This document shows positions 794 through 41,171 of a DNA stretch of 53,649 nucleotides, in pieces (the stretch's first letter is position 1; every line of letters starts with the position of its first letter). The position numbers and the translations under genes were made by a program. The stretch covers positions 1 to 53,649 of the forward strand of contig WQVI01000001.1 of NCBI GenBank assembly GCA_009781625.1, given 5' to 3'. The notes under the pieces were generated by a model. That model worked only from the letters and a program-made list of their open reading frames with translations. It searched no databases and had not been told where the DNA came from. This DNA is from Defluviitaleaceae bacterium. GTDB taxonomy: Bacteria > Bacillota > Clostridia > Lachnospirales > WRAX01.

Positions 794-2791
794 GTGGTGA
801 TTATTTTGAAGATATTAGACAACAAACTGCCAAATTACCCCAAATTTGCACAGGACATACGTCGCGCACCCAGCCGTGGTTTCCGCTTGACAGAGGCACA
901 GGCCCAAACAGCCCTTAAAAACGCCTTGCGCTATGTGCCAAAAGAGCTTCACGAAACCCTGGCACCTGAATTTATGCAAGAGCTTATCACCCATGGCCGC
1001 ATTTACGCCTACCGCTATCGCCCCGAAGGCCGCATTTACGGCAAGCCCATAGACCAATACCGAGGCAAATGCCTGGAAGGCAAGGCTTTTCAAGTGATGA
1101 TAGATAATAATTTAGATTTTGACATAGCCCTTTACCCCTACGAACTTATTACATACGGCGAAACAGGTGCCGTGTGCCAAAACTGGCTGCAATACAGGCT
1201 TATCATACAATATCTGCAAGAGCTTGACCATAACAACACCCTTGTTATAGCCAGCGGCCACCCCGTTGGCCTTTTCCCATCCCATCCCGCCGCACCCCGC
1301 GTAATAGTCACCAACGGCCTAATGATAGGCATGTATGATAATCTTGATGACTTTGAAATTGCCGCCCAAATGGGCGTTGCCAGCTACGGCCAAATGACGG
1401 CCGGCGGGTGGATGTATATCGGCCCCCAAGGCATTGTCCACGGCACTTACAACACCTTGCTTAATGTGGGCCGCAAGGTAATGGGCTTTGCTGTTGATGA
1501 CGACCTTCGCGGCAAGCTATTTGTCTCCAGCGGCCTGGGCGGCATGAGCGGCGCACAGCCCAAAGCCATAGAGCTTTGCGGCGGCGTCGGCATCATTGCC
1601 GAGGTAGACCCAAGCCGCATAGAAACCCGCCTATCCCAAGGCTGGGTGCGCGATGTGTGCCAAAGCCCCGCGGCGGCTTTCGAACTTGCCCAAAAATATC
1701 TGCTGGCCCGCCAGCCCTATTCCATAGCATATCAAGGCAATATTGTGGACCTTTTACAATATGCCGTCCTAACCAACACCCACATCGACATTTTGACAGA
1801 CCAAACAAGCTGCCACAACGTCTACGACGGTGGCTATTGCCCGCAAATTACTTTTGAAGAGCGCACAAAGATGCTGGCCGAAAACCGCGAAGAATTTGTA
1901 AAGCTGGTTGACAAAACCTTGCGCCGCCACTATCAATGCATTCAGGCCCTAGCCGAGCGCGGCACCTATTTCTTCGATTACGGCAACTCCTTCCTAAAGG
2001 CCGTCTACGACACAGGCATAAAGGACATCAGCAAAAACGGCATAGACGAAAAAGATGGCTTTATCTTCCCATCATATGTGGAGCACATCCTGGGCCCGGA
2101 GCTTTTCGACTATGGCTACGGCCCCTTCCGCTGGGTGTGTCTTTCCGGCAACCCCGCCGACCTTGAAAAAACCGACGCCATGGCCGCCGCCTGTATAGAC
2201 CGCACCCGCCGCCCCGCCGACAACGACAATTACGTCTGGATAACCACAGCCGCCGAAAATAAGATGGTTGTGGGTACACTGGCACGCATTTTGTATCAAG
2301 ATGCCGAAGGCCGCACCAAAATTGCCCTAAAATTTAACGAAATGGTGCGTAACGGCGAGGTTGGCCCCATTATGTTAGGCCGCGACCATCACGATGTCTC
2401 CGGCACAGATTCGCCTTTCCGCGAAACCAGCAATATCAAGGACGGCAGCAATGTAATGGCCGATATGGCCACCCAATGCTTTGCCGGTAACGCCGCCCGG
2501 GGTATGTCCCTAATAGCCCTGCACAACGGCGGCGGCGTGGGCATAGGCAAATCTATCAATGGCGGCTTTGGCCTTGTCCTTGACGGTAGCGAGCGCGTGG
2601 ACAATATCATCAAATCCGCCATGATGTGGGATGTAATGGGCGGCATAGCCCGCCGCAACTGGGCCGGTAATGAGAACGCCATGGCTACCGCGGCAGAATA
2701 TAACGAAAAGCATGACGGCCATATAACCCTGCCCAATGTTGCTGATGATGTCCTTATTGAAACTGTCGTTCAAAGTGCCTTGCAGGCCTAG
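794..2791 (+). CDS. hutU: Urocanate hydratase
   Basis: 665 aa with urocanase-like length and motifs (GHPVGLFPSH..., GGMSGAQPKA, LHNGGGVGIG). The start may be TTG at 806, given GGAG at 791-794. Confidence 0.9.
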   Translation: MVIILKILDNKLPNYPKFAQDIRRAPSRGFRLTEAQAQTALKNALRYVPKELHETLAPEFMQELITHGRIYAYRYRPEGRIYGKPIDQYRGKCLEGKAFQVMIDNNLDFDIALYPYELITYGETGAVCQNWLQYRLIIQYLQELDHNNTLVIASGHPVGLFPSHPAAPRVIVTNGLMIGMYDNLDDFEIAAQMGVASYGQMTAGGWMYIGPQGIVHGTYNTLLNVGRKVMGFAVDDDLRGKLFVSSGLGGMSGAQPKAIELCGGVGIIAEVDPSRIETRLSQGWVRDVCQSPAAAFELAQKYLLARQPYSIAYQGNIVDLLQYAVLTNTHIDILTDQTSCHNVYDGGYCPQITFEERTKMLAENREEFVKLVDKTLRRHYQCIQALAERGTYFFDYGNSFLKAVYDTGIKDISKNGIDEKDGFIFPSYVEHILGPELFDYGYGPFRWVCLSGNPADLEKTDAMAAACIDRTRRPADNDNYVWITTAAENKMVVGTLARILYQDAEGRTKIALKFNEMVRNGEVGPIMLGRDHHDVSGTDSPFRETSNIKDGSNVMADMATQCFAGNAARGMSLIALHNGGGVGIGKSINGGFGLVLDGSERVDNIIKSAMMWDVMGGIARRNWAGNENAMATAAEYNEKHDGHITLPNVADDVLIETVVQSALQA

Positions 2792-2801
2792 AAAAGCAGA
2801 G

Positions 2802-3302
2802 ATGAGGTGTCCAATTGTGAACCAAAGCTTATTTTGGGCTACATTAGCTATTACATTTCTAGTAGTTGCTATTATAGTTGCAGCACTTCTTAATATCTTC
2901 TTTTCACCCCTTGGTTTTGATGTCGTGAGCACATTACTCTTTGCTCTTGCAGCAGGTTGGTGCCTAGCTAAATTTTGGGCAGCTACAGAAAATGAATTTA
3001 AAAGCGACAAATATTTTGAAGAGAAAATGAATAAAATGTCCAAGTCTCTTCGAGATTCTGCAAAGGATTTGAGCGAGATTCAAGCACATTTGGAAGAGCG
3101 CAAAGCAATCGCGGATAATTTGAAAGAGGAAGTGGAAGATGCAGAAGCTCTCTTAAAGATGAGCAAGCAACAGATAGACGCCATTGCCAGAAAAGTCGGA
3201 AGGCAACTGCGAAAACCTACCGGAAAAGATGTTATGTTTGTAGTGATAGGTGCGGTGTTGGGCGGTCTTATAACGATATTTGTTGCTAGTTTCATACAAT
3301 AG
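2802..3302 (+). CDS. Hypothetical membrane protein with a coiled-coil segment
   Basis: Hydrophobic helices at both ends flank a charged coiled-coil (KEEVEDAEALLKMSKQQIDAIARK). Start is taken at the first ATG after the hutU stop. Confidence 0.5.
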   Translation: MRCPIVNQSLFWATLAITFLVVAIIVAALLNIFFSPLGFDVVSTLLFALAAGWCLAKFWAATENEFKSDKYFEEKMNKMSKSLRDSAKDLSEIQAHLEERKAIADNLKEEVEDAEALLKMSKQQIDAIARKVGRQLRKPTGKDVMFVVIGAVLGGLITIFVASFIQ

Positions 3303-3350: not shown

Positions 3351-3454
3351 TGGATTGCTTCGGCCATAGGCTGCGCTGGCTTTTAACTTGCCATTGGCCT
3401 CGCAATGGCGGTTGAATTGTCATTTTATAATGCAGTTCAAGGCCGAAACAATAC
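3351..3454 (-). repeat. Solo, shortened copy of the hairpin repeat family that forms the array at 36887-37617 (opposite orientation)
   Basis: tggattgcttcggcc...ccattggcctcgcaatgg..ggttgaatt...aggccgaaacaatac matches the reverse complement of an array unit. The ends are self-complementary. Confidence 0.6.
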
Positions 3455-3547: not shown

Positions 3548-4261
3548 ATGAAAAAATCAAGATTTCTAACGGTCATGTTCGCCATCCTGCTTGCGGGCGT
3601 TATCTTTGCACAGCCGTTGCAAGCCAGCGAGCCGCCCACTCTCACCGTTAGCGGCACGGGGGCCGTCTCAATTGCCCCTGACATTGCCACCGTAAACCTA
3701 GGTGTTAGCACCCAGCACGAAAACCCACAGCGCGCCCTTGCGGAAAATAGCACGCAAACTACCGCTGTTATCGCGGCTGTTCGTGCCCTTGGCATTGATG
3801 AAGACGATATTCGCACCTCAAACTTCTTCATCGACCCCGTCTTTGGCTTCGATTGGGTTGAGATAACCTCATACCGCGTTACAAACACCATCACAGTAAC
3901 CCTTCGCGATATTGACCAAATTGGCGATGTCCTAGGCGCAGGGGTTGCCGCCGGTGCCAATGTATCCCACGGTATTTCCTTTGGCGTTTCAGATTCTTCT
4001 GCCGCCTACAACCAGGCCCTTGCCCTTGCCATCGAAAACGCCCAAAGCCGTGCTAACGCAATGGCCGCAGCCCTTGGCACCCGCATTACTGGCATATCGG
4101 CCGTAGTGGAAATGGGCGGTATGCATATGCCCATGTCCCGTGCGCATTTTGGTATGCCCATGGCTATAGCCGAAATGGACGTAGCAGCAGGCGTACCAAT
4201 TGAAGCCGGCGACCTTATAGTCACCGCTAATGTACAAATTATTTTCACAATAGCTCCGTGA
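3548..4261 (+). CDS. SIMPL (DUF541) domain secreted protein
   Basis: Signal peptide MKKSRFLTVMFAILLAGVIFA, then TVSGTGAVSIAPDIATVNLGV, typical of the SIMPL/26-kDa periplasmic protein family. SD is aaaggag. Confidence 0.75.
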   Translation: MKKSRFLTVMFAILLAGVIFAQPLQASEPPTLTVSGTGAVSIAPDIATVNLGVSTQHENPQRALAENSTQTTAVIAAVRALGIDEDDIRTSNFFIDPVFGFDWVEITSYRVTNTITVTLRDIDQIGDVLGAGVAAGANVSHGISFGVSDSSAAYNQALALAIENAQSRANAMAAALGTRITGISAVVEMGGMHMPMSRAHFGMPMAIAEMDVAAGVPIEAGDLIVTANVQIIFTIAP

Positions 4262-10571: not shown

Positions 10572-10595
10572 GTAGGGGCGAACTGCGTTCGCCCG
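10572..10595 (+). repeat. REP hairpin, type 1 (GTAGGGGCGAAC-N-GTTCGCCCG)
   Basis: gtaggggcgaactgcgttcgcccg lies between rpmG and secE. It is the same motif as the copies around RAYT-1. Confidence 0.8.
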
Positions 10596-10615
10596 ATTAA
10601 AAAGGACGTGAAAAA

Positions 10616-10834
10616 ATGGAAGAAAAGAAAAAAGAAGGCCGTTTTTCAGAATGGTTTAGCGGCATCATAGGCGAATTTAAGCGCATAACCTGGCCGGACC
10701 GTAAAACCCTTGTTAAAATGACTGTTACCGTTATCATCACAAGCGGCATCTTCGGCGGCATTATTGTAGCCTACGATTTTGTTTTAGGTGCCGGATACAA
10801 CGGGCTTGTTGGGCTTGTTGACATGCTTAGATAG
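10616..10834 (+). CDS. secE: Preprotein translocase subunit SecE
   Basis: 72 aa with EFKRITWPDRKTL followed by a single TM helix. rpmG-secE-nusG synteny. Confidence 0.9.
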   Translation: MEEKKKEGRFSEWFSGIIGEFKRITWPDRKTLVKMTVTVIITSGIFGGIIVAYDFVLGAGYNGLVGLVDMLR

Positions 10835-10852
10835 AACGGAATGAGGTGAAAT

Positions 10853-11380
10853 ATGACAGAAGTTGCCCCAAGGTGGTATGTGGTACACACCTATTCCGGC
10901 TATGAAAACAAGGTAAAGGCAAATTTGGAAAAGATTATCGAAAACAGGGGTATGCAGGAGCAAATTCTTGAGGTTTCCGTCCCAATTCAAAACGTAGTTG
11001 AAGTTAAAAACGGCGTGAAGAAGACGGTGGCCAAAAAGGTTTTTCCCGGCTATGTCCTCGTTTTTATGCATATGAATGACGAAACATGGTATGTCGTGCG
11101 TAACACCCGCGGCGTTACCAGCTTTGTGGGTCCCGGCAGCAAGCCCGTGCCCCTTTCTGAAGACGAAATACGCTTCATGGGCCTTATTGAGGACCTCGAA
11201 GAGGTGATAGATCTTGACGTGGGCGATGCCGTGCGTATTACAACAGGGCCTTTTGAGGATTCTGTCGGTACGGTAACAGAAGTAAACCAAGCCCGCAAGA
11301 TGGTTGTTGTTTCTCTAACAATTTTTGGCAGAGAAACACCGGTTGAACTGGATTATATACAAATTGAAAAAATGGGTTAA
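10853..11380 (+). CDS. nusG: Transcription termination/antitermination protein NusG
   Basis: WYVVHTYSGYENKVK N-terminus and a KOW region. Synteny supports the call. Confidence 0.95.
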   Translation: MTEVAPRWYVVHTYSGYENKVKANLEKIIENRGMQEQILEVSVPIQNVVEVKNGVKKTVAKKVFPGYVLVFMHMNDETWYVVRNTRGVTSFVGPGSKPVPLSEDEIRFMGLIEDLEEVIDLDVGDAVRITTGPFEDSVGTVTEVNQARKMVVVSLTIFGRETPVELDYIQIEKMG

Positions 11381-11952: not shown

Positions 11953-12717
11953 ATGCATGATGATTTGCCCACAGAAAATCAACGAGAATTGCAGCTGCTG
12001 CAAGAAAAAGCCAATAGAGCAGACCAGCTTCAAGACTTGTTGCTTAAATTAGACCGCAAGGCACAATGGCTGAGAGGGGCAACAATTGCTCTAAGCATAA
12101 TAGTCTTAATAGGCGGTCTGGCTGCGTTTCGCGCAAACCACTATAACATTGTGCTTGCGCTAAACGGCATAACAGAAACCCACCGCCTAGGCGAGGATGT
12201 CGTAGTTACATTTGATGACCGTTGGTTTGGCAATAACAACGCAATGCGCTCGATACTTTGGCAAGAAGGCGATGAGATGGGCAATTTTGTTTCGTTGCGC
12301 CAAAACAGCTTGGGCTTTTGGTTTATAGCCAGCGAATATGGGGGTGTTTGGCGTACCGCTTCCGGCGGCGGACTTGTCACATGGCCTGTCCCCCTTTGGC
12401 AATTAAACCATTTTGACGACCCGCGATACGGACGCCACCGTCATAATTGGGCGACGATTACCATTCATCAGCGACATCTCGGAACAACTACTTCGATCTC
12501 CCCTTCTTGGGATTTTGGGCGGGTTGCATACTATCACAACACCAACGCAATAGCCCTAATAGAGCTTGATCACTCTCTTTTGCCAGACGGTATAACGGCA
12601 GATATACGGCAATGGGGTTCGTTTTATGTTATACAACTGGACATTGCTATTAGAGATTTTTGGCAACCTGAAATAACGCCATTGATTGAAGATTTGGTCA
12701 GGGATTTTGTTGAATAA
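11953..12717 (+). CDS. Unknown single-pass membrane protein, paralog 1 of 3
   Basis: Charged N-terminus, TM helix ALSIIVLIGGLAAF, then a beta-rich ~190-aa ectodomain. Blocks NGITETHRLGED, YYHNTNAIALIELDHSLLP and VIQLD are shared with the next two ORFs. Confidence 0.7.
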   Translation: MHDDLPTENQRELQLLQEKANRADQLQDLLLKLDRKAQWLRGATIALSIIVLIGGLAAFRANHYNIVLALNGITETHRLGEDVVVTFDDRWFGNNNAMRSILWQEGDEMGNFVSLRQNSLGFWFIASEYGGVWRTASGGGLVTWPVPLWQLNHFDDPRYGRHRHNWATITIHQRHLGTTTSISPSWDFGRVAYYHNTNAIALIELDHSLLPDGITADIRQWGSFYVIQLDIAIRDFWQPEITPLIEDLVRDFVE

Positions 12718-12731
12718 GAAGGTCGTAAGTC

Positions 12732-13394
12732 ATGACAAATGAGCGAGATTTACAAAGGTTGAAGGACGAGGCCGAAAGAGCAGACATTCGCCAGATCGCG
12801 GTGTCTAAATTAGACCGTCAGGTACGATGGCTGAAAAGGGCAGCAATTGCCCTAAGCATAATGGTTTTAATAGGCGGGCCGGCTATGTTTCGCGCAAACC
12901 ACTACAACCTCGTGCTTTCGCTAAACGGCATAACAGAAACCTTTCGCCTGGGCGAAGATGGCACTGTCACCTATGTGGGCCACCTTTTGGGCAACCAAAA
13001 CACAACACGCCTAATATTTTCTCAGCAAGGCAATGAAATGGGCGAATTTGTCCATCTTCGCCGAAACAGTTGGGGCTTTTGGTCAGTTTCCGGCAGAACA
13101 AATTGGCAGGTTGATTCCGGTGGCATTTTAACTACAGAAGTTAACTTTGCTGCGCCAAATTATTTTGATGAACAGTGGGCAGACGTCCCAACTTGGACAT
13201 CAATTGCTTACTATCACAACACCAACGCAATTGCCCTAATTGAAATAGACCATAGCCTTTTGCCTACACATGTCACGGCAAGTCTGCGACAATGGGGCAA
13301 CCATTACATTTTACAACTGGACAATATCGGAAGCTTTCTTGTCCCTGAAATAGAACAAATGATTAACGATATAGTCAAAGATTTTGTTGAATAA
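12732..13394 (+). CDS. Unknown single-pass membrane protein, paralog 2 of 3
   Basis: Same architecture and conserved blocks. 14-nt spacer with SD-like gaagg. Confidence 0.7.
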   Translation: MTNERDLQRLKDEAERADIRQIAVSKLDRQVRWLKRAAIALSIMVLIGGPAMFRANHYNLVLSLNGITETFRLGEDGTVTYVGHLLGNQNTTRLIFSQQGNEMGEFVHLRRNSWGFWSVSGRTNWQVDSGGILTTEVNFAAPNYFDEQWADVPTWTSIAYYHNTNAIALIEIDHSLLPTHVTASLRQWGNHYILQLDNIGSFLVPEIEQMINDIVKDFVE

Positions 13395-13408
13395 GAGGGC
13401 CATAAGCC

Positions 13409-14059
13409 ATGACCCATGACGATTTGACCATAGAGAATAAGGCAGGCCATCTCCAAACTTTGGTGCTTAAATTAGACCGTCAGGCTCGATGGTTGAAAAG
13501 AGCTTTAATCGCTGTTAGTATCATTGTGCTATTGGGTGGATGGTATATGTTTCGCACCAACCATTATTATATTGCACTTGCCATAAATGGCCTTACAGAA
13601 ACCCACAGATTTGGTGACGACGGCACTGTCAACTTTGGCGGCCGCTTTCTGGGCGAGGGCAACACAGTGCGCTTTATATTTTCTCAGCGTGGCGATGACA
13701 TGGGCGAATTTGCGCGGCTTCGTCAAAACAGTTGGGGTTGGTGGTCGGTAGATCCCATATTAAATTGGCGTATAGATTCCGGTGGTATCTTAGTTACTGA
13801 GCGCATCTTTATTTCACCAAATTATTTTGAAGATGAATGGGTGGCGCGTTTTAACAGCTGGAGTTGGGCAGCATATTATCACAATGTAAATGCAACAGCT
13901 TTAATTGAGCTTGACCATAGCCTTCTGCCGGATTATGTTACGGCAACTTTGTATCAAAAGGGCAGAAGCTATGTTATACAACTGGACAATATTGCAATTT
14001 TTCAGTATTATGAGATAGAAGAAATGATAAATAATTTAGTCAGAGATTTTATTGAATAA
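13409..14059 (+). CDS. Unknown single-pass membrane protein, paralog 3 of 3
   Basis: Same architecture and conserved blocks. 14-nt spacer with agaggg. Confidence 0.7.
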   Translation: MTHDDLTIENKAGHLQTLVLKLDRQARWLKRALIAVSIIVLLGGWYMFRTNHYYIALAINGLTETHRFGDDGTVNFGGRFLGEGNTVRFIFSQRGDDMGEFARLRQNSWGWWSVDPILNWRIDSGGILVTERIFISPNYFEDEWVARFNSWSWAAYYHNVNATALIELDHSLLPDYVTATLYQKGRSYVIQLDNIAIFQYYEIEEMINNLVRDFIE

Positions 14060-15701: not shown

Positions 15702-16079
15702 CTTATACTAATCTAAGTTATACCAATATCCCACCAAAGCAGTAGCAAAAACTTGTCTTTTTGCACCAAGGACATCGTCAGCTTCTCCTTACGTGCCCTT
15801 ATACTAATCTAAGTTAAAAATCATTGAAAGCTGCCCTGCAAAACTACTTGAATCGCTGTAGATTTCGCAGCTTGCTTTCAATGTTTTTAACGTAAGATTA
15901 GTATTAGGCACGCCGCGTCGTCGCTTCCTTGCCTTGATGCAAAAATCCTGCGTTTTTCTGTTACTGTTTTGGTGGGATATTGGTATAAAAATCATTGAAA
16001 GACTGCGCCGCGAAACGACTTGAAGCGTTGTCGCTTTCGCGGCTTGTTTTCAACGTTTTTAACGTAAGATTAGTATTAC
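15702..16079. repeat. Mosaic repeat field, order A-B-A-C1-A'-B'-C2-A'
   Basis: A (cttatactaatctaagtta) lies at 15702 and 15798; its inverted form (taacgtaagattagtatta) lies at 15888 and 16060. B (15721-15797) is an inverted copy of B' (15907-15985). C1 (15816-15888) and C2 (15986-16060) are direct copies of a ~72-nt hairpin. Confidence 0.8.
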
Positions 16080-26251: not shown

Positions 26252-28878
26252 AAAAAGAGCTGGAAAGCAAATACAACCCAAAAACCGTTGAGGACAGGCT
26301 TTATGCCCAATGGCTTGCCCGCGGCTATTTTCACGCCGAGGTGGATGAAAGCAAAGAGCCATACACCATCATGATACCGCCGCCAAATATCACAAGTCAG
26401 CTGCATTTGGGCCACGCCTTTGAAGCGACATTAATTGACATTTTGATACGCTTCAAGCGTATGCAAGGCTATAACGCGCTGTGGATGCCTGGTACAGACC
26501 ACGCCGCCATTGCCACTGAAGTAAAAATTGTGGAAGATATGGCGAAGGATGGTGTCACAAAGTCCGACCTTGGGCGTGATGGCTTTATGGAGCGCGCATG
26601 GGAATGGTATGACAAATATGGGTCTACCATAATTAACCAACTGAAAAAAATGGGTAGTAGCTGCGACTGGGAGCGTACACGCTTTACCATGGATGAAGGC
26701 CTATCTGATGCGGTTTTGGAAGTTTTCGTGCGCCTATATGAAAAAGGCCTCATCTATCGCGGCGAAAGGCTGGTAAACTGGTGTACACAGTGTAAAACCA
26801 GCATCTCTGATGCCGAAGTGGAGCACGATGAAAAGCAGGGTGGCTTTTGGCATTTTAAATATCCCGTAAAGGACATGCCTGATACCTTCGTGCAGTTTGC
26901 AACAACCCGGCCAGAAACCATGCTTGGCGACGTTGCCATCGCCGTAAACCCTGATGACGAGCGTTATGCACACCTTATCGGCAAAACTGCCGTTATGCCT
27001 ATATTAGGCCGCGAAATGCCCATAATCGCCGACAGTTACGTAAAAACAGACTTTGGCACGGGCATGGTGAAAATTACTCCCGCCCATGATTTTAATGACT
27101 TTGAAATTGGCACGCGACACAGCCTGCCAAATATTAACATAATGAATGACGATGGTACCATCAATGAAAATGGCGGAGCCTATACAGGGCTTGACCGCTA
27201 CGCCGCCAGAAAACAGATTGTAGCCGAAATGGACGGCCTTGGGCTTTTTGTAAAAAAAGAGGATATCACACATTCTGTTGGTGCCCATGACCGTTGCCAC
27301 ACCGTGGTAGAGCCCCTTATCAAGCTTCAATGGTTTGTGGCCATGGAAACCCTTGCAAAGCCCGCGCTGGATGCCTACAAAAATAATGAGCTGCGCGTGA
27401 TACCTCCGCGTTTCGGCAAAGTCTACTCCCATTGGCTGGAAAATATTAGAGATTGGTGCATTTCGCGCCAACTGTGGTGGGGCCATCGCATCCCTGCCTA
27501 TTACTGTAACTGCGGTGAAATTGTCGTTGCAAAGTCCACACCGAATAAATGCCCAAAGTGTAGCGGCACAAACTTCACACAAGACGAAGATAGCTTGGAC
27601 ACTTGGTTTTCATCGGCGCTATGGCCATTTTCCACGCTGGGATGGCCAAAGCAAACCGAAGAGCTAAAATACTTCTACCCAACAAATGTTCTTACCTGTG
27701 GCTACGAAATCCTGTTTTTCTGGGTTATACGCATGGTGTTCTCCGGACTGGAATTTATGGGAGAGCTACCTTTCAAAGATGTCTACATTCACGGCATTAT
27801 GCGGGATGAGCAAGGGCGCAAAATGAGCAAATCTCTCGGAAACGGCATAGACCCCCTGGAGGTTATTGAAACATACGGTGCCGATGCCCTGCGCTTTTCG
27901 CTGGCTACAGGCAACAGCCCCGGTAACGACCTGCGCTTTTACACCGAAAAGGTGGAAGCCAGCCGCAACTTCCTTAACAAAATTTGGAATAGCACCCGCT
28001 TTATCATGATGAATTTGGGTGATGAGGTGCCAACAGTTGATATCACAGACCTTACAGCCGCTGATAGATGGATAGTGTCGCTGTCAAACCGCCTTGTAGC
28101 TGATGTCACCCAAAATATAGATAACTACGAGCTTGGAATGGCCGCCGATAAAGTCCATAGCTTTATGTGGGACGAATTTTGCGATTGGTATATTGAAATG
28201 GCCAAGCCACGCCTATATGGTGATGACGACGGCACGCGCAATGCCGCGCTATGGACACTGACCCATGTGCTGACATGCGGCCTAAAGCTGCTGCACCCCT
28301 TTATCCCCTTTATCACCGAGGAAGTGTATACCACTTTGGGTGCAGGCGACAGTATCATGATTTCAGAATGGCCAAAATACGAAGAAAAGTACAATTTTGC
28401 CGCCGAAGAGGCCCAGGTAGAAAGCATCAAAGAAGCCGTGCGTGCCATCCGCAATGTACGCGCCAACATGAATGTACCCCCATCGCGCCGCGCTAAAGTA
28501 TTTGTGGTGTCAGATAGCGATGCTACACGCCAGATTTTTGAAAGTGGTGCAAAATATGTTATGGCTTTGGCATCGGCGGCCGAGGTTATCGTCCAAGCTG
28601 ACAAGGCTGGCATAGAAAACAACGCCGTGTCCATCGTAGTGCCCGGTGCTGAAATTTTCATACCTTTTGCAGACTTGGTGGACATCGAGAAGGAAAAGGA
28701 AAGGCTTGCCAAAGAAGCAGACAAACTAACAAAAGAAGTAGAGCGCGTGGCAGCAAAGCTGAATAATCCCGGCTTTGTGGACAAGGCGCCGCAAAAGGTT
28801 GTTGATGAGGAGAAAGAGAAAGAGAAGAAATATAGGGAAATGCTAGCGGCAGTGGAAAAGCAATTAGCAGCTTTATAA
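26248..28878 (+). CDS. valS: Valine--tRNA ligase
   Basis: 876 aa with PPPNITSQLHLGHA (HIGH), KMSKSLGN (KMSKS) and a C-terminal coiled coil. Confidence 0.97.
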   Translation: MKKELESKYNPKTVEDRLYAQWLARGYFHAEVDESKEPYTIMIPPPNITSQLHLGHAFEATLIDILIRFKRMQGYNALWMPGTDHAAIATEVKIVEDMAKDGVTKSDLGRDGFMERAWEWYDKYGSTIINQLKKMGSSCDWERTRFTMDEGLSDAVLEVFVRLYEKGLIYRGERLVNWCTQCKTSISDAEVEHDEKQGGFWHFKYPVKDMPDTFVQFATTRPETMLGDVAIAVNPDDERYAHLIGKTAVMPILGREMPIIADSYVKTDFGTGMVKITPAHDFNDFEIGTRHSLPNINIMNDDGTINENGGAYTGLDRYAARKQIVAEMDGLGLFVKKEDITHSVGAHDRCHTVVEPLIKLQWFVAMETLAKPALDAYKNNELRVIPPRFGKVYSHWLENIRDWCISRQLWWGHRIPAYYCNCGEIVVAKSTPNKCPKCSGTNFTQDEDSLDTWFSSALWPFSTLGWPKQTEELKYFYPTNVLTCGYEILFFWVIRMVFSGLEFMGELPFKDVYIHGIMRDEQGRKMSKSLGNGIDPLEVIETYGADALRFSLATGNSPGNDLRFYTEKVEASRNFLNKIWNSTRFIMMNLGDEVPTVDITDLTAADRWIVSLSNRLVADVTQNIDNYELGMAADKVHSFMWDEFCDWYIEMAKPRLYGDDDGTRNAALWTLTHVLTCGLKLLHPFIPFITEEVYTTLGAGDSIMISEWPKYEEKYNFAAEEAQVESIKEAVRAIRNVRANMNVPPSRRAKVFVVSDSDATRQIFESGAKYVMALASAAEVIVQADKAGIENNAVSIVVPGAEIFIPFADLVDIEKEKERLAKEADKLTKEVERVAAKLNNPGFVDKAPQKVVDEEKEKEKKYREMLAAVEKQLAAL

Positions 28879-28881
28879 GTA

Positions 28882-28967
28882 ATGTCGGGTAAACCCGACT
28901 AAAAGTAACGACTACAAGTCAAACGTATGGGTTGTACCCTTCACTTCCAGTCGGGTTTACCCGACAT
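28882..28967. repeat. Palindromic intergenic element between valS and pheT
   Basis: atgtcgggtaaacccgact (28882-28900) is the exact reverse complement of agtcgggtttacccgacat (28949-28967). Each arm is also a small hairpin (gtcggg-taaa-cccgac). Confidence 0.75.
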
Positions 28968-28987
28968 CACCCATCAAGGAGGCATAT

Positions 28988-31377: not shown

Positions 31378-31544
31378 CTAGGGCCTGTTCCCACTATAAG
31401 AAAATGCAGATTTGCGAGGCGATTTTTCGCCAGGCAAGGAGCCGACGACGACGCGTGTCTAGAGACACGCTAGGAGAAGGCGACGCAGAATGGCGGAAAC
31501 ATCGACCGCAAATGTGCGTTTTCGTTAGTGGGAACAGGCCCTAG
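31378..31544. repeat. 167-bp MITE-like palindromic element with 19-bp perfect terminal inverted repeats
   Basis: ctagggcctgttcccacta (31378-31396) pairs with tagtgggaacaggccctag (31526-31544). Inner imperfect pairing joins gaaaatgcagatttgcg with cgcaaatgtgcgttttc. The central perfect palindrome is gcgtgtctagagacacgc. Confidence 0.75.
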
Positions 31545-34894: not shown

Positions 34895-34949
34895 ACATCT
34901 AAGATATCACGCCGCGGGGCTGTTGTAAAGGGAGTGGTGTTAAAATAAT

Positions 34950-35038
34950 TTCAAACCACGAAAGGCACGAAAAACACGAAAGGGGCTTTGTACTTATGTG
35001 GTTTTTTCGTGTCTTTCGTGTTTTTCGTGGTTTGAAAA
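34950..35038. repeat. Long hairpin built from three CACGAAA heptads per arm
   Basis: The left arm is tttcaaaccacgaaaggcacgaaaaacacgaaagg. The right arm is ttttttcgtgtctttcgtgtttttcgtggtttgaaa. Heptads pair, and the 2-nt spacers between them do not. Confidence 0.7.
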
Positions 35039-36750: not shown

Positions 36751-36781
36751 AAATTTCGACAAATATCATACCTGCACAACC

Positions 36782-37732
36782 CTTGATCATCTTGAACACC
36801 CTTCTATAAACGCCGGTATCATCGGCTTTAGAAAGATGCTCATAGGGTGTTCAATGAGCATCCTTGTCTGTGTTATAAAAAAATCACTGGATTGCTTCGG
36901 ACTTGTAATGACATTTCAACTGCCACGGACATCCAGTTAGCAACGTAACGTCCAACTGTCATTGCGAGGCCAATGGTGGTTGAAAGGCCAATACAGTACA
37001 GGGCCGAAGCAATCCAGCTTACGTCAACATCAAAATTTATACTCATCGGCTAACTGGATTGCTTCGGACTTGTGCTGCATCATAATTCAACCATCGTAGT
37101 CCTCGCAATGACAATTGAACTATCACGGACATCCCTATAACAACGCAACGTCCAACTGTCATTGCGAGGCCAATGGTGGTTGAAAGGCCAATACAGTACA
37201 GGGCCGAAGCAATCCAGCTTACGTCAACATCAAAATTTATACTCATCGGCTATCTGGATTGCTTCGGACTTGTACTTCATCATAATTCAACTGTCGTAGT
37301 CCTCGCAATGACAATTGAACTATCACGGACATCCCTATAACAACGCAACGTCCAACCGTCATTGCGAGGCCAATGGTGGTTGAAAAGCCAGTGCAGTACA
37401 AGGCCGAAGCAATCCAGCTTACGTCAACATCAAAATTTACACACATCGGCTATCTGGATTGCTTCGGACTTGCACCGCATCATAATTCAACTGCCATAGT
37501 CCTCGCAATGACATTTCAACTGCCGCGGACATCCGGTAGCAACACAACCGTCCAACTGTCATTGCAAGGCCAACGGAAGTTGAAAAGCCAGTGTAGCACA
37601 GGGCCGAAGCAATCCAGCAACACATATCCATACAATTATTACACAGAGAAGGATGCTCATTGAACACCCCTTGAACATCTTTCTAAACCCCATGATACCG
37701 GCGTTTATAGAAGGGTGTTCAAGATGATCAAG
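36782..37732. repeat. 951-bp composite element: ~82-97-bp outer inverted repeats enclosing four tandem ~200-bp hairpin units
   Basis: 36782-36863 is the reverse complement of 37651-37732. Units begin with CTGGATTGCTTCGGAC at 36887, 37054, 37254 and 37454, and each ends with GGCCGAAGCAATCCAG. Confidence 0.9.
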
Positions 37733-37783
37733 AATTGTACCGGCGTAATACTTTCAAGCTAAAGATATAAGGAGATAAAGGTT

Positions 37784-38821
37784 ATGGAGAAAAAACTTTG
37801 CAAATACGGTACCAACAGGGTGATAGCGCCCCAGGGCGTGCTGCCCCAGGCGGCCCAGAAAATTGACAATGATATGACCATCCATGAAAACGAAATTTTA
37901 ATTGACGTTATCTCGCTTAATGTCGATTCTGCCTCGTTTACACAGCTTCGCGGTGAGGCAGGCGACGATGAGGGCAAGATAGCCGCCAAAATTATGGAAA
38001 TTGTGGCAGAACGTGGCAAGATGCAAAACCCCGTAACGGGCAGCGGCGGCATGTTAATTGGCCGCGTGGCGCAAATAGGCGCGGCTCTTACAGGGCGCGA
38101 TATACAGGTTGGCGACAAGATAGCCACGCTGGTTTCCCTATCGTTAACACCGCTAAAAATCAATAAAATCAACGCCATCCAGATGAATATAGATAGGGTG
38201 GACGTGGATGCACAGGCCATCCTCTTTGAAACAGGCATATACGCCAAGCTGCCCGAAGATATGAGCGAAGCCCTGGCCCTGGCCGCCCTGGACGTGGCCG
38301 GTGCCCCCGCCCAAACCGCCAAACTGGCGCGCCCGGGTGACGCCGTGCTTGTTTTAGGCGCAGGGGGAAAGTCCGGCATGATGTGCTGCTTTGAGGCCAT
38401 GCGCCGCGTTGGCCCAACGGGCAATGTCGTGGGCATGGTGCGTAGCCAAGCTGACCGTGAAAAGCTGATGGCTAACGGGCTATGCCACGACGTTATCGTA
38501 TCTGATGTAACCCAGGCCCTAGATGTGCTGGAAAAAGTGCTTGCCGCCAACAATGGGCGCGAATTTGATATTAGCATCAACTGCGTAAATGTCCCCAACA
38601 GCGAAATGGCCAGCATCCTGCCCGTGCGCGATGGCGGCACGGTGTATTTCTTCTCCATGGCCGTTAGCTTTACAAAAGCCGCGCTGGGCGCGGAAGGCGT
38701 TGGCAAGGATGTTAACATGATAGTGGGCAATGGCTACACCCGCGGCCATGCGGAAATTACACTGGCACAGCTGCGAGAAAGTGCCGCGCTACGTCAGATT
38801 TTTGAGGAAAAATATGTGTGA
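37784..38821 (+). CDS. kdd: L-erythro-3,5-diaminohexanoate dehydrogenase
   Basis: 345 aa. N-terminus KYGTNRVIAPQGVLPQAA..., NPVTGSGGML and a GAGGKSG Rossmann motif. Pathway context. Confidence 0.8.
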   Translation: MEKKLCKYGTNRVIAPQGVLPQAAQKIDNDMTIHENEILIDVISLNVDSASFTQLRGEAGDDEGKIAAKIMEIVAERGKMQNPVTGSGGMLIGRVAQIGAALTGRDIQVGDKIATLVSLSLTPLKINKINAIQMNIDRVDVDAQAILFETGIYAKLPEDMSEALALAALDVAGAPAQTAKLARPGDAVLVLGAGGKSGMMCCFEAMRRVGPTGNVVGMVRSQADREKLMANGLCHDVIVSDVTQALDVLEKVLAANNGREFDISINCVNVPNSEMASILPVRDGGTVYFFSMAVSFTKAALGAEGVGKDVNMIVGNGYTRGHAEITLAQLRESAALRQIFEEKYV

Positions 38822-38831
38822 TAATGATGCC

Positions 38832-39341
38832 ATGACGCCGCATACGGGCGAACACAGTTCGCCCCTACGAAGGCGCAAAGCAAACCGTTTAAAAGATTAC
38901 GACTATAGCCAAGCAGGTGCGTATTTTGTGACGATATGCACAAAAGACCATGCCCATTTATTTGGAAGCATCAGTAGGGGCGAACTGTGTTCGCCCGTAT
39001 GCCAAACGCATCTGTCACCAATTGGAGAAATTGTCGAATCTGAAATAGAAAAGCTTTCAGCAACTTATGATATGGCCTATGTCAATCTCTATGTCATCAT
39101 GCCAAATCATGTCCATATGATAATCGTTATTCGACATAATAACGGGCGAACACAGTTCGCCCCTACGTTGTCGCGCATCATAAAGCAATGGAAAGGGGCA
39201 ATAACAAAAAGAATTGGCCGCCCTATCTGGCAAAAATCCTTTTACGACCGTATAATCCGCAATGAAGGCGACTATCTTCGCATTGCCGAATATATAGAAA
39301 CCAACCCGGCCAAATGGCAAGAAGACGAATACTATTCGTAG
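38832..39341 (+). CDS. REP-associated tyrosine transposase (RAYT, IS200-like HUH/Y1), copy 1
   Basis: YFVTICT, HUH motif MPNHVHMII, WQKSFYDRIIRN and EYIETNP. Three type-1 REP hairpins lie in frame (38844-68, 38974-98, 39142-66) and a fourth spans the stop. The start could also be ATG 38814. Confidence 0.8.
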   Translation: MTPHTGEHSSPLRRRKANRLKDYDYSQAGAYFVTICTKDHAHLFGSISRGELCSPVCQTHLSPIGEIVESEIEKLSATYDMAYVNLYVIMPNHVHMIIVIRHNNGRTQFAPTLSRIIKQWKGAITKRIGRPIWQKSFYDRIIRNEGDYLRIAEYIETNPAKWQEDEYYS

Positions 39342-39397: not shown

Positions 39398-40639
39398 ATG
39401 AAAAACAACATCTTCAAAAACATCCCCGCCGAAAATTGGAACAACTGGCAGTGGCATTTGCGCAATAAAATTGAGACGGTGGAAGATTTGAAAAAACTTT
39501 GTGACATCAGCGCAGCCGATGAAGTGGGCATTGCGCGCTGTCTTGAAACTTTTCGCATGGCCATCACGCCTCATTATTTTTCGCTGATAGATTTGCATGA
39601 CGAGCGCGACCCCGTGCGTGCCCAATGTGTGCCCAGCGTCTATGAAACCCATTTTGCCGGTGAAGATTTGGAAGACCCCCTGCATGAGGACGAGGATAGC
39701 CCGGCACCGGGCCTAACCCACCGCTATCCGGACCGTGCATTGCTTTTGGTAACGGACCAATGCGCCATGTATTGCCGCTTTTGCACCCGGCGGCGTTTTG
39801 CGGGACAAAAGGATGGCGCGCTGCCTATATCACAGGTGGATGCGGCCATAGACTATATCGAAAAGACGCCCGCCATCCGCGATGTGCTGCTATCCGGCGG
39901 CGATGCCATGCTGCTGCCTGATGATGCGCTAGAGCATATCCTAAAACGCCTGCGGGCCATACCCCATGTGGAGATAATCCGCTTTGGCTCGCGCCTGCCC
40001 GTGGTTTTGCCCCAACGCATCACGGATGAGCTATGCAACTTGCTGAAAAAATATCATCCCATCTGGGTTAACACCCATTTTAACCATCCGGCGGAAATTT
40101 CCCAGGCATCCATCGAAGCTTGCGAAAAGCTGGCAAATGCGGGCATACCCCTAGGCAACCAATCTGTGCTTCTGGCAGGTGTAAATGATTGCGTTCATGT
40201 CATGAAGCAGCTTGTCCAGCAGCTGGTAAAAATACGCGTGCGCCCATACTATTTGTATCAATGCGACCTTTCGCTGGGCCTGTCCCATTTCCGCACGCCT
40301 GTGGCCAAAGGTATCGAGATTATCGAAGGCCTGCGCGGTCACACCTCGGGCTATGCCGTGCCCACCTTCGTTGTAGACGCGCCCGGCGGCGGCGGCAAGA
40401 TACCCGTCATGCCTAACTATGTGGTGTCCCACGGCACACACAAGGTCATCCTGCGCAACTACGAAGGCGTCATCACCACATATACCGAGCCTGAAACCTA
40501 CCAACATACCTGCAACTGCCCTGTGTGCCGCGGAGATGAAAAGGCACAATATGAGGGACTTGCAGCGTTGATGAACAACCAAAAGCTGGCGATAGAGCCG
40601 GCAGATTTGGCCCGGCGCAGGAGGAAACATAATGGGTAA
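39398..40639 (+). CDS. kamA: Lysine 2,3-aminomutase (radical SAM)
   Basis: CAMYCRFCTRRR (CxxxCxxC), LLSGGDAMLL and a C-terminal Cys cluster CNCPVC. Confidence 0.92.
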   Translation: MKNNIFKNIPAENWNNWQWHLRNKIETVEDLKKLCDISAADEVGIARCLETFRMAITPHYFSLIDLHDERDPVRAQCVPSVYETHFAGEDLEDPLHEDEDSPAPGLTHRYPDRALLLVTDQCAMYCRFCTRRRFAGQKDGALPISQVDAAIDYIEKTPAIRDVLLSGGDAMLLPDDALEHILKRLRAIPHVEIIRFGSRLPVVLPQRITDELCNLLKKYHPIWVNTHFNHPAEISQASIEACEKLANAGIPLGNQSVLLAGVNDCVHVMKQLVQQLVKIRVRPYYLYQCDLSLGLSHFRTPVAKGIEIIEGLRGHTSGYAVPTFVVDAPGGGGKIPVMPNYVVSHGTHKVILRNYEGVITTYTEPETYQHTCNCPVCRGDEKAQYEGLAALMNNQKLAIEPADLARRRRKHNG

Positions 40640-41171
40640 TGCGCCTTCTCGTAAGCCTAACCGCTTGGAAAATCACGACTATGCACAGCCTGGCACATAT
40701 TTTATCACAATATGCTCTAAAGGCCACCAGCAACTGTTTGGCACAATTGCCTTGGGGAGCGGGCGGCAAAATGCCGCCCCTACAAGCCTCATGAAGTTGT
40801 CGCCCATAGGAAGGATAGTTGAAGCAGAAATAATGCGGCTATCCCGCACCTATGAAGGGGTTTATGTAGACTGTTATGTCGTTATGCCAAACCATGTTCA
40901 TATGATCATCGTCATCCGCAACATCCACGGGCGGCAAGATGCCTCCCCTACGATATCCCAGATGATGAATCAATGGAAAAGGGCAGCTTCTATAAAAGCA
41001 GGCTCATCTATTTGGCAAAAATCCTTTCATGACCATATAATACGCAACCAGGTTAGATATAACCTCATTGTTCAATATATAGCATGTAATCCAGAAATTT
41101 GGGAGAAGGACATTTATTTCATGGGGCCTGGACGTCCTTACATCGCCCCTTCGGACCGCCCCATTTTGTAG
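40632..41171 (+). CDS. REP-associated tyrosine transposase (RAYT), copy 2
   Basis: YFITICS, MPNHVHMII, WQKSFHDHIIRN and QYIACNP. The ATG overlaps the kamA 3' end by 8 nt. Type-2 REP hairpins lie in frame at 40759-83 and 40927-51. Confidence 0.8.
   Translation: MGNAPSRKPNRLENHDYAQPGTYFITICSKGHQQLFGTIALGSGRQNAAPTSLMKLSPIGRIVEAEIMRLSRTYEGVYVDCYVVMPNHVHMIIVIRNIHGRQDASPTISQMMNQWKRAASIKAGSSIWQKSFHDHIIRNQVRYNLIVQYIACNPEIWEKDIYFMGPGRPYIAPSDRPIL

Follow-up and report, generated by a model that had tools for sequence, protein, structure and literature searches.

A probable array of Ssn-related hairpin repeats between kce and kdd in a termite-gut Defluviitaleaceae contig

The kce and kdd genes of a lysine-fermentation operon in a termite-gut "Defluviitaleaceae bacterium" are separated by an insert of about 1 kb made of nested repeats, which raises the question of what kind of element this is. 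The window analysed here is the whole 53,649-bp contig of this metagenome-assembled genome (MAG); kce lies upstream and kdd downstream of the insert, the identity of both genes by NCBIfam agreeing with an earlier reading of this DNA (the original prediction). We identified the repeats of the insert as part of a family that is found across many phyla and that flanks Ssn-type GIY-YIG genes on both sides. Judged by sequence comparison, the insert is probably an array, similar to neisserial intergenic mosaic elements (NIMEs) and bacterial interspersed mosaic elements (BIMEs), of an uncatalogued class of Ssn-related hairpin repeats, and consists of non-coding multi-copy DNA. Features of this kind have been known since 2025; the sequence class, the long inverted doublets and the regular tandem array in a Gram-positive anaerobe are new.

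Layout of the insert and its modules

The insert is symmetrical at two levels, with four units enclosed by inverted repeats, as the original prediction had described, and the repeat analysis agrees while extending the arms to 118 nt. The left outer arm (36761-36878) and its partner, the right outer arm (37636-37753), are 87% complementary, and their core (36782-36863 / 37651-37732) has about 5 mismatches in 82. The arms form a sequence family separate from the units; the left arm has internal hairpins of its own (z -3.6 when folded as single-stranded DNA, ssDNA) and contains the one terminator-like site, a weak one.

Between the arms, CTGGATTGCTTCGGAC opens units at 36887, 37054, 37254 and 37454 (spacing 167, 200 and 200), and GGCCGAAGCAATCCAG closes every one of the four. 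Units 2 (37054-37217), 3 (37254-37417) and 4 (37454-37617) are full doublets of 164 nt each, and the linkers of 36 nt between units bring the period to 200. Linker 1 (37018-37053) lies between ...GCAATCCAG and CTGGATTGC..., and linkers 2 and 3 occupy 37218-37253 and 37418-37453. Unit 1 (36886-37017) is a truncated doublet, from which 33 nt are missing, the CCTCGCAATGAC box among them. The 200-bp units are 87-93% identical, and the "spacers" are repeated along with them; a CRISPR array, already set aside by the original prediction, is thus rejected, as the whole unit is repeated and the spacers are not unique. Direct reading of units 2 and 3 also bears out the compensatory difference described between them, a G.T pair in one being replaced by a Watson-Crick A.T pair in the other. 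Across the window there are 9 copies of GGATTGCTTCGG, against 0.4 expected, and 8 of CCTCGCAATGAC, against 0.15 expected.

We named GGATTGCTTCG box A and CTCGCAATGAC box B; a and b denote the reverse complements. Each unit then reads A..B-centre-b..a, and consists of two oriented modules, GTCATTGCGAGG-(~35 nt)-CCGAAGCAATCCAG, that face each other head to head on opposite strands. Modules in the window are ~60 nt long with a loop of ~27 nt, making a doublet of ~165 nt, and follow the formula 5'-(T)GTC-ATTGC-GA-[stem/loop]-GAA-GCAAT-CCAG-3'; seven full modules read GTCATTGCGAGG...CCGAAGCAATCCAG. In unit 1, the minus-strand module (36886-36925) is shortened by the 33-nt deletion, and the plus-strand module (36955-37019) is intact. 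The minus- and plus-strand modules lie at 37052-37115 and 37155-37219 in unit 2, at 37252-37315 and 37355-37419 in unit 3, and at 37452-37515 and 37555-37618 in unit 4. The solo copy that had been proposed at 3351-3454 is real: nhmmer identifies a full module at 3351-3412 (minus strand) with a degenerate partner at 3403-3452, giving a shortened and degenerate doublet of the same family (3351-3452) in the gap between the open reading frames (ORFs) 2736-3302 and 3548-4261.

The whole region folds far better than shuffled sequences, with z of -26.5 for the plus-strand RNA, -28.6 for the minus-strand RNA and -23.8 for DNA, and one unit as ssDNA reaches -41 kcal/mol (z -8.3). Complementarity between the arms of a unit is 0.62, against a between-locus background of 0.63, and so gives no evidence of selection on the long hairpin itself.

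Box-bearing modules across phyla and their GIY-YIG genes

We scanned one genome per species (596 Gb) for the A-N20-50-B pattern (GGATTGCTTCGG-N20-50-CCTCGCAATGAC), for which our own arithmetic gives a chance expectation of ~0.1. The box pair was found at more than 115 loci in at least 15 phyla among the matches listed. The hosts include Bacteroidota, Chloroflexota, Cyanobacteria, Gemmatimonadota, Acidobacteriota, several proteobacterial classes and Campylobacterota, and further Spirochaetota, Planctomycetota, Verrucomicrobiota, Omnitrophota, Patescibacteria, KSB1 and Clostridia. Literature searches with the box sequences returned primer coincidences only. The original prediction had noted a resemblance to widespread repeats that generate spurious "LDCF...LAMT" peptides, and this link points to the box family; ubiquitous spurious peptides of the "...CFxxLAMT / RSNP..." type may stem from the GTCATTGCGAGG...CGAAGCAATCC class.

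Outside the window, the boxes are spaced by ~15 to 70 nt and box B is often iterated. The commonest arrangement in other phyla is b..a-short loop-A..B, the reverse of the window's unit, so that the 36-nt linker has as good a claim to be the loop as the central loop of the original prediction. The sequence between the boxes is variable, yet its two ends pair: the uninterrupted closing stem of a module, which adjoins the conserved GA/GAA internal loop, has a mean of 4.0 bp, against 2.0 with permuted partners (sd 0.05; 256 unique modules), and so covaries. Several loci (L024 20-260, L059 3000-3260, L042 5700-6200, L080 and L277; L numbers are our labels for comparison loci) show further variants, with box B iterated at a period of 24-27 nt in Acetobacteraceae and Pumilibacter, and regular tandem box arrays with periods of ~143 nt in Okeania and ~290 nt in Chloroflexus.

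In seven of the loci found by their boxes, a GIY-YIG gene of 93-101 aa is embedded among the boxes, and clustering of the ORFs from all box-ascertained loci identified one recurrent small family, with PF01541 as its only domain. The association holds when the boxes are not used for ascertainment: six homologues were chosen by protein search alone and their loci then inspected, and all six are box-flanked, five of them on both sides. The layout is constant: a b..a module, ending in ...GCAATCCAG, stops ~40 nt short of the ATG, and an A..B module begins at the stop codon or immediately behind it.

Proteins of the Ssn family (cd10448), which consist of a single GIY-YIG domain, are endonucleases that cut ssDNA at specific sites (Chenal et al. 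2025, Nat Commun 16:2388, PMC11893778). SsnA of Neisseria meningitidis has the hairpin repeat NTS (CGTCATTCCCGCGMAVGCGGGAATCYRG) as its binding site and makes its cut just upstream, in ssDNA only and on one strand only, and NTS-like "SRM" repeats lie beside ssnA genes across phyla (PMC11893778). From viral contigs scanned for the exact NTS consensus, we recovered GIY-YIG ORFs that are flanked by NTS on both sides (e.g. L203 7823-8134) and that match the profile of the box-associated proteins at E 1e-27 to 1e-32. With the NTS-flanked protein of L203, the termite-gut GIY-YIG protein shares 51% identity (E 1e-29), and on the strength of this similarity the box-associated proteins are provisionally assigned to the Ssn family of single-strand nucleases. 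Among named homologues, the nearest to the termite-gut protein come from MAGs of Spirochaetes and Campylobacteraceae, at ~70% identity. Searches of NCBIfam and the PDB with the Ssn-like proteins yielded no family, the UPF0213 structure 1ZG2 being a weak match (E 0.0013).

The window's modules and NTS have their oriented ends, (C/T)GTCAT...ATCCAG, in common, in keeping with the non-palindromic flanks of SRM repeats (5' GTCAT..., 3' ...ATCYRG, around a hairpin core); canonical NTS copies read (C/T)GTCATTCCCGCG...GCGGGAATCCAG. Both repeats are multi-copy, intergenic and clustered, and both flank a single-domain GIY-YIG gene of ~95-100 aa on two sides, with the CCAG ends toward the gene, which for the present family is seen in relatives and not in the window. 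They differ in their cores, ATTGC-GA...GAA-GCAAT with a variable stem here and ATTCCCGC/GCGGGAAT in NTS. Unlike NTS, the repeats of the window are arranged as 165-nt inverted doublets, and their host is a Gram-positive relative of Clostridium.

The likeness to NIMEs is one of architecture only: in both, hairpin repeats that are known or presumed nuclease targets are interspersed with other short sequences over a long intergenic stretch. NIMEs are arrays of dRS3 hairpins alternating with RS elements of 50-150 bp and were reported as Neisseria-specific (PMC1797815), and dRS3 is the core of NTS. Where NIMEs are mosaics of many RS families, the window's array repeats regularly in tandem every 200 bp, and the dRS3 consensus ATTCCCN8GGGAAT has no match in the window with up to one mismatch allowed. 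An analogy between Ssn with its repeats and the REP-associated tyrosine transposases (RAYTs) with repetitive extragenic palindromic (REP) sequences has been drawn (PMC11893778). The present repeats resemble REPs, their doublets (REPINs) and BIMEs in being hairpin doublets that are dispersed and cluster into arrays, with a single-copy nuclease gene between its own repeats and an ssDNA hairpin as presumed substrate; they differ in that the enzyme is of the GIY-YIG and not the HUH/Y1 type, and that the units have no GTAG head. The insert also resembles Correia elements and miniature inverted-repeat transposable elements (MITEs) in its terminal inverted repeats of ~100 nt and in being non-coding and intergenic within an operon, and differs from them in its interior tandem array of another repeat family and in that no target-site duplication is seen.

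Insertion at kce-kdd and dispersal in termite-gut contigs

The comparison of kce-kdd junctions proposed in the original prediction agrees with an insertion. The spacer is 25 nt in L124/L125, where Kce is 86% identical, and ~90 nt with a 13-bp hairpin in L136, where the operon has ~85% nucleotide identity; a PlsY-like gene lies between kce and kdd in L123, and a GNAT gene and a gene of 221 aa in L122. The junction is a hot spot of variation in this lineage, and the array is an insertion relative to the orthologous operons. A REP related to those found downstream in the window lies directly after the kce stop in L122 (1807-1840). Direct reading of the insert ends, at 36761 and 37753, revealed no evident target-site duplication.

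The array is absent from L136, where instead one solitary unit of the family lies between kal and kce, at a spot that is empty in the window; the family therefore inserts independently into the spacers of one operon. The spacer hairpin of L136 has "CATACCTGC" in common with the terminus of the outer arm; with so weak an alignment, this does not amount to a footprint of the arm.

The module pattern specific to the window's subfamily was found at 23 metagenome loci, all from termite-gut samples. The dispersed form in these loci is A-47-B-(9 to 48-nt centre)-b-47-a, mostly in single copies, and doublets are scattered in this way through Defluviitaleaceae-type genomes. Lone units are found in both orientations, in a prophage as well as in numerous unrelated intergenic regions. 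The original prediction had reported no transposase gene in the element and had suggested an amplified, MITE-like element; we likewise find no transposase within it, and the repeat is amplified, dispersed and MITE-like. Tandem copies with the window's linker were identified in L138, L139, L141, L148 and the prophage L004, and the linker is 90-96% conserved in these arrays. The L004 array (10614-11374) has four doublet units, is ~85% identical to that of the window and lies among tail-region genes, in a prophage module with terminase, portal, major head and tape measure genes. Because this array lies in a prophage structural module, phages may carry the repeats between hosts.

A nuclease gene stands among doublets of the window's own subfamily on contig Ga0131853_10001388 (L144 and L140, which are contiguous), in the order cheA-[doublet]-99-aa GIY-YIG-[doublet]-cheW. 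The nearest relatives of its CheA are MAG proteins from termite-gut Clostridiales (81%) and Defluviitaleaceae (66-70%). The GIY-YIG gene occupies the a|A junction between the doublets, which is the slot of the window's 36-nt linker; a similarity between that linker and the flanks of ssnA in L144 is not convincing.

The outer arms have one other copy, in L139 (3052-3180), where the left arm is fused to a truncated first unit as in the window and the neighbours are unrelated, the site lying downstream of a GNAT gene and not of kce; the end of the L139 contig falls inside the array. This recurrence suggests that arms and array may travel together. No further arm copies were found beyond L139, the viral-contig scan included.

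Alternative explanations and other repeats of the contig

The favoured interpretation, a NIME/BIME-like array of Ssn-related repeats, would work as follows. An Ssn-family nuclease whose gene lies outside the contig, elsewhere in the genome, would bind modules exposed as ssDNA during replication, repair or uptake and cut just upstream of them, and this pairing of nuclease and repeat would account for the persistence and spread of the repeats. The array could have grown by local tandem duplication or unequal recombination, inside, or moving with, a second inverted-repeat element represented by the outer arms. Any effect of transcript hairpins on the kce-kdd mRNA would be a by-product.

Several points weigh against this interpretation. 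Binding and cleavage of the window's modules by Ssn are proposed by extension from Neisseria NTS and from the gene-repeat architecture, and the suggested mode of spread is likewise a proposal. An ssnA gene was not found within the 53.6-kb contig, which is only part of the MAG, and a protein homologue search did not demonstrate ssnA in a named Defluviitaleaceae MAG. The outer inverted repeat falls outside what an Ssn-repeat model accounts for. SRM repeats are defined as inverted repeats of 20-50 nt that form a hairpin as ssDNA, and single modules of the window, at ~60 nt, fold as ssDNA about as well as shuffles (z -0.25 to -0.84, against -5.1 for NTS), so the structure recognised may differ from that of NTS. 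Finally, the published SRM search sequence, HGTCWYN(0-2)YYVSBRHN(0-5)WNVSBRGN(0-2)RNCYNB (PMC11893778), has no match in the window. It likewise has none at the examined A/B-flanked GIY-YIG genes, with three NTS-type matches elsewhere in L057; in controls, it gives 2-7 matches per NTS-type locus and 263 in the NTS-ascertained loci. Since the window's repeats have the ends and architecture of NTS in common but escape the SRM pattern, have long modules and fold weakly as single modules, they appear from their sequence to be a distinct class of Ssn-related repeat, and not a member by the published operational definition.

As a class of Ssn-related repeats, they would tie a widespread uncatalogued repeat, and maker of spurious small ORFs, to the Ssn family, and mean that an entire sequence class of such repeats escapes the published SRM motif. 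NIME-like arrays, earlier known in Neisseria only, would be extended to a Gram-positive gut anaerobe and a prophage, and new nuclease-site pairs would become available for ssDNA tools. A bolder extension, which we regard as possible though doubtful, is that the GTCATTGCGAGG...CGAAGCAATCC class is a pan-bacterial Ssn-cognate family missed by the SRM definition, and that in Defluviitaleaceae the doublets and doublet arrays are the gene-less, non-autonomous form of a mobile element of ssDNA hairpins driven by GIY-YIG. If so, Ssn would be a mobilising nuclease like RAYT or TnpA and not just a restriction-like one, seeding copies into operon spacers and phage genomes, and the 36-nt linker would fill the slot of ssnA.

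Among the rivals, a functional structured RNA, acting as an mRNA stability, processing or attenuation module of the lysine-fermentation operon, fares best, although we consider it unlikely. REP hairpins stabilise upstream mRNA segments, and the insert might be likened to these: it lies between co-directional genes with a single weak terminator-like site, its RNA folds very strongly on both strands, and L136 has another solo unit between kal and kce. The original prediction had likewise listed a large structured RNA or an RNA-processing module among its options, and this part is not upheld. The insert has no match in Rfam at gathering thresholds, with only sub-threshold miRNA-hairpin noise at E up to 10; the units lie either way round and in unrelated surroundings, a phage tail-gene region among them; the orthologous operons work without the insert; complementarity within units is at the between-unit background; and conservation is concentrated in boxes that resemble protein-recognition sites and are common to the nuclease-gene loci. 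Side effects on the operon at the RNA level may nevertheless occur.

A MITE or REPIN mobilised by IS200-like/RAYT-like Y1 transposases encoded 1-3 kb downstream in the operon is a weaker candidate, and we judge it very improbable. Two plus-strand ORFs resembling Y1_Tnp/RAYT proteins do lie within the lysine-fermentation operon, at 38730-39341 after kdd (Pfam Y1_Tnp, E 8.4e-5) and at 40632-41171 after kamA (NCBIfam REP_Tyr_transpos, E 6.6e-15, below cut-off; Pfam Y1_Tnp, E 0.023), the units are hairpin doublets like REPINs, and the insert as a whole has long terminal inverted repeats. However, the repeat that borders the Y1 ORFs is another one, GTAGGGGCG-N8-CGCCCGT, which has a classical GTAG head; no RAYT homologue was found in 121 box-ascertained loci, whereas GIY-YIG genes are present; and the ends of the insert show no evident target-site duplication. 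The GTAG-headed REP palindromes are at 10572, 38842, 38974, 39142, 39338, 40759, 40927, 41166, 41246, 42913, 50412 and 50486, and copies also lie within the Y1 ORFs, where they are read as protein.

Tandem small-protein genes can be dismissed as scarcely credible: the minus-strand 67-aa ORFs with ATGA overlaps (37043-37246 and 37243-37446) each fill one unit and are annotated by PGAP/GenBank as hypothetical proteins (MCL2375792.1 and MCL2375793.1), but substitutions are spread 5/5/2 over the three codon positions (8 non-synonymous, 3 synonymous), frameshifts and in-frame stops interrupt the homologous units of L004, L141, L138, L148 and L134, both clusters are singletons, the ATG-supplying linker is absent from solo units, and unit centre lengths are not multiples of 3. 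The original prediction had named a clearly protein-coding homologous stretch as counter-evidence; the homologous arrays have the frameshifts and stops just listed. The annotated ORFs are therefore probably spurious calls, and the 1-kb operon gap with its two "hypothetical proteins" would be better labelled a repeat region.

We additionally identified other repeats in the window. Another dispersed repeat family lies at 15715-16078 and 31379-31543, with a 34-nt inverted repeat (15718-15751 / 15955-15988) and 76-nt direct repeats (15831-15906 / 16003-16078); stretches 88-100% identical to it occur at 588-760 and 1217-1384 of L148, an unrelated termite-gut contig with a doublet array. A palindrome with 54-nt arms and GTCGGGTAAACCCGAC lies between two large ORFs (28871-28978), and a 36-nt stretch of it is 97% identical to prophage L004 (8280-8326). 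Three tandem paralogous genes of 254, 220 and 216 aa occupy 11953-14059 on the plus strand, with 61-78% nucleotide identity over long stretches (repeat families D1, D4 and D8). In the divergent gap between kamB (minus strand) and the kal-kce operon (plus strand), a hairpin with 33-nt arms and TTTCGTG-type repeats, 91% complementary (34949-35037), may be a regulatory site.

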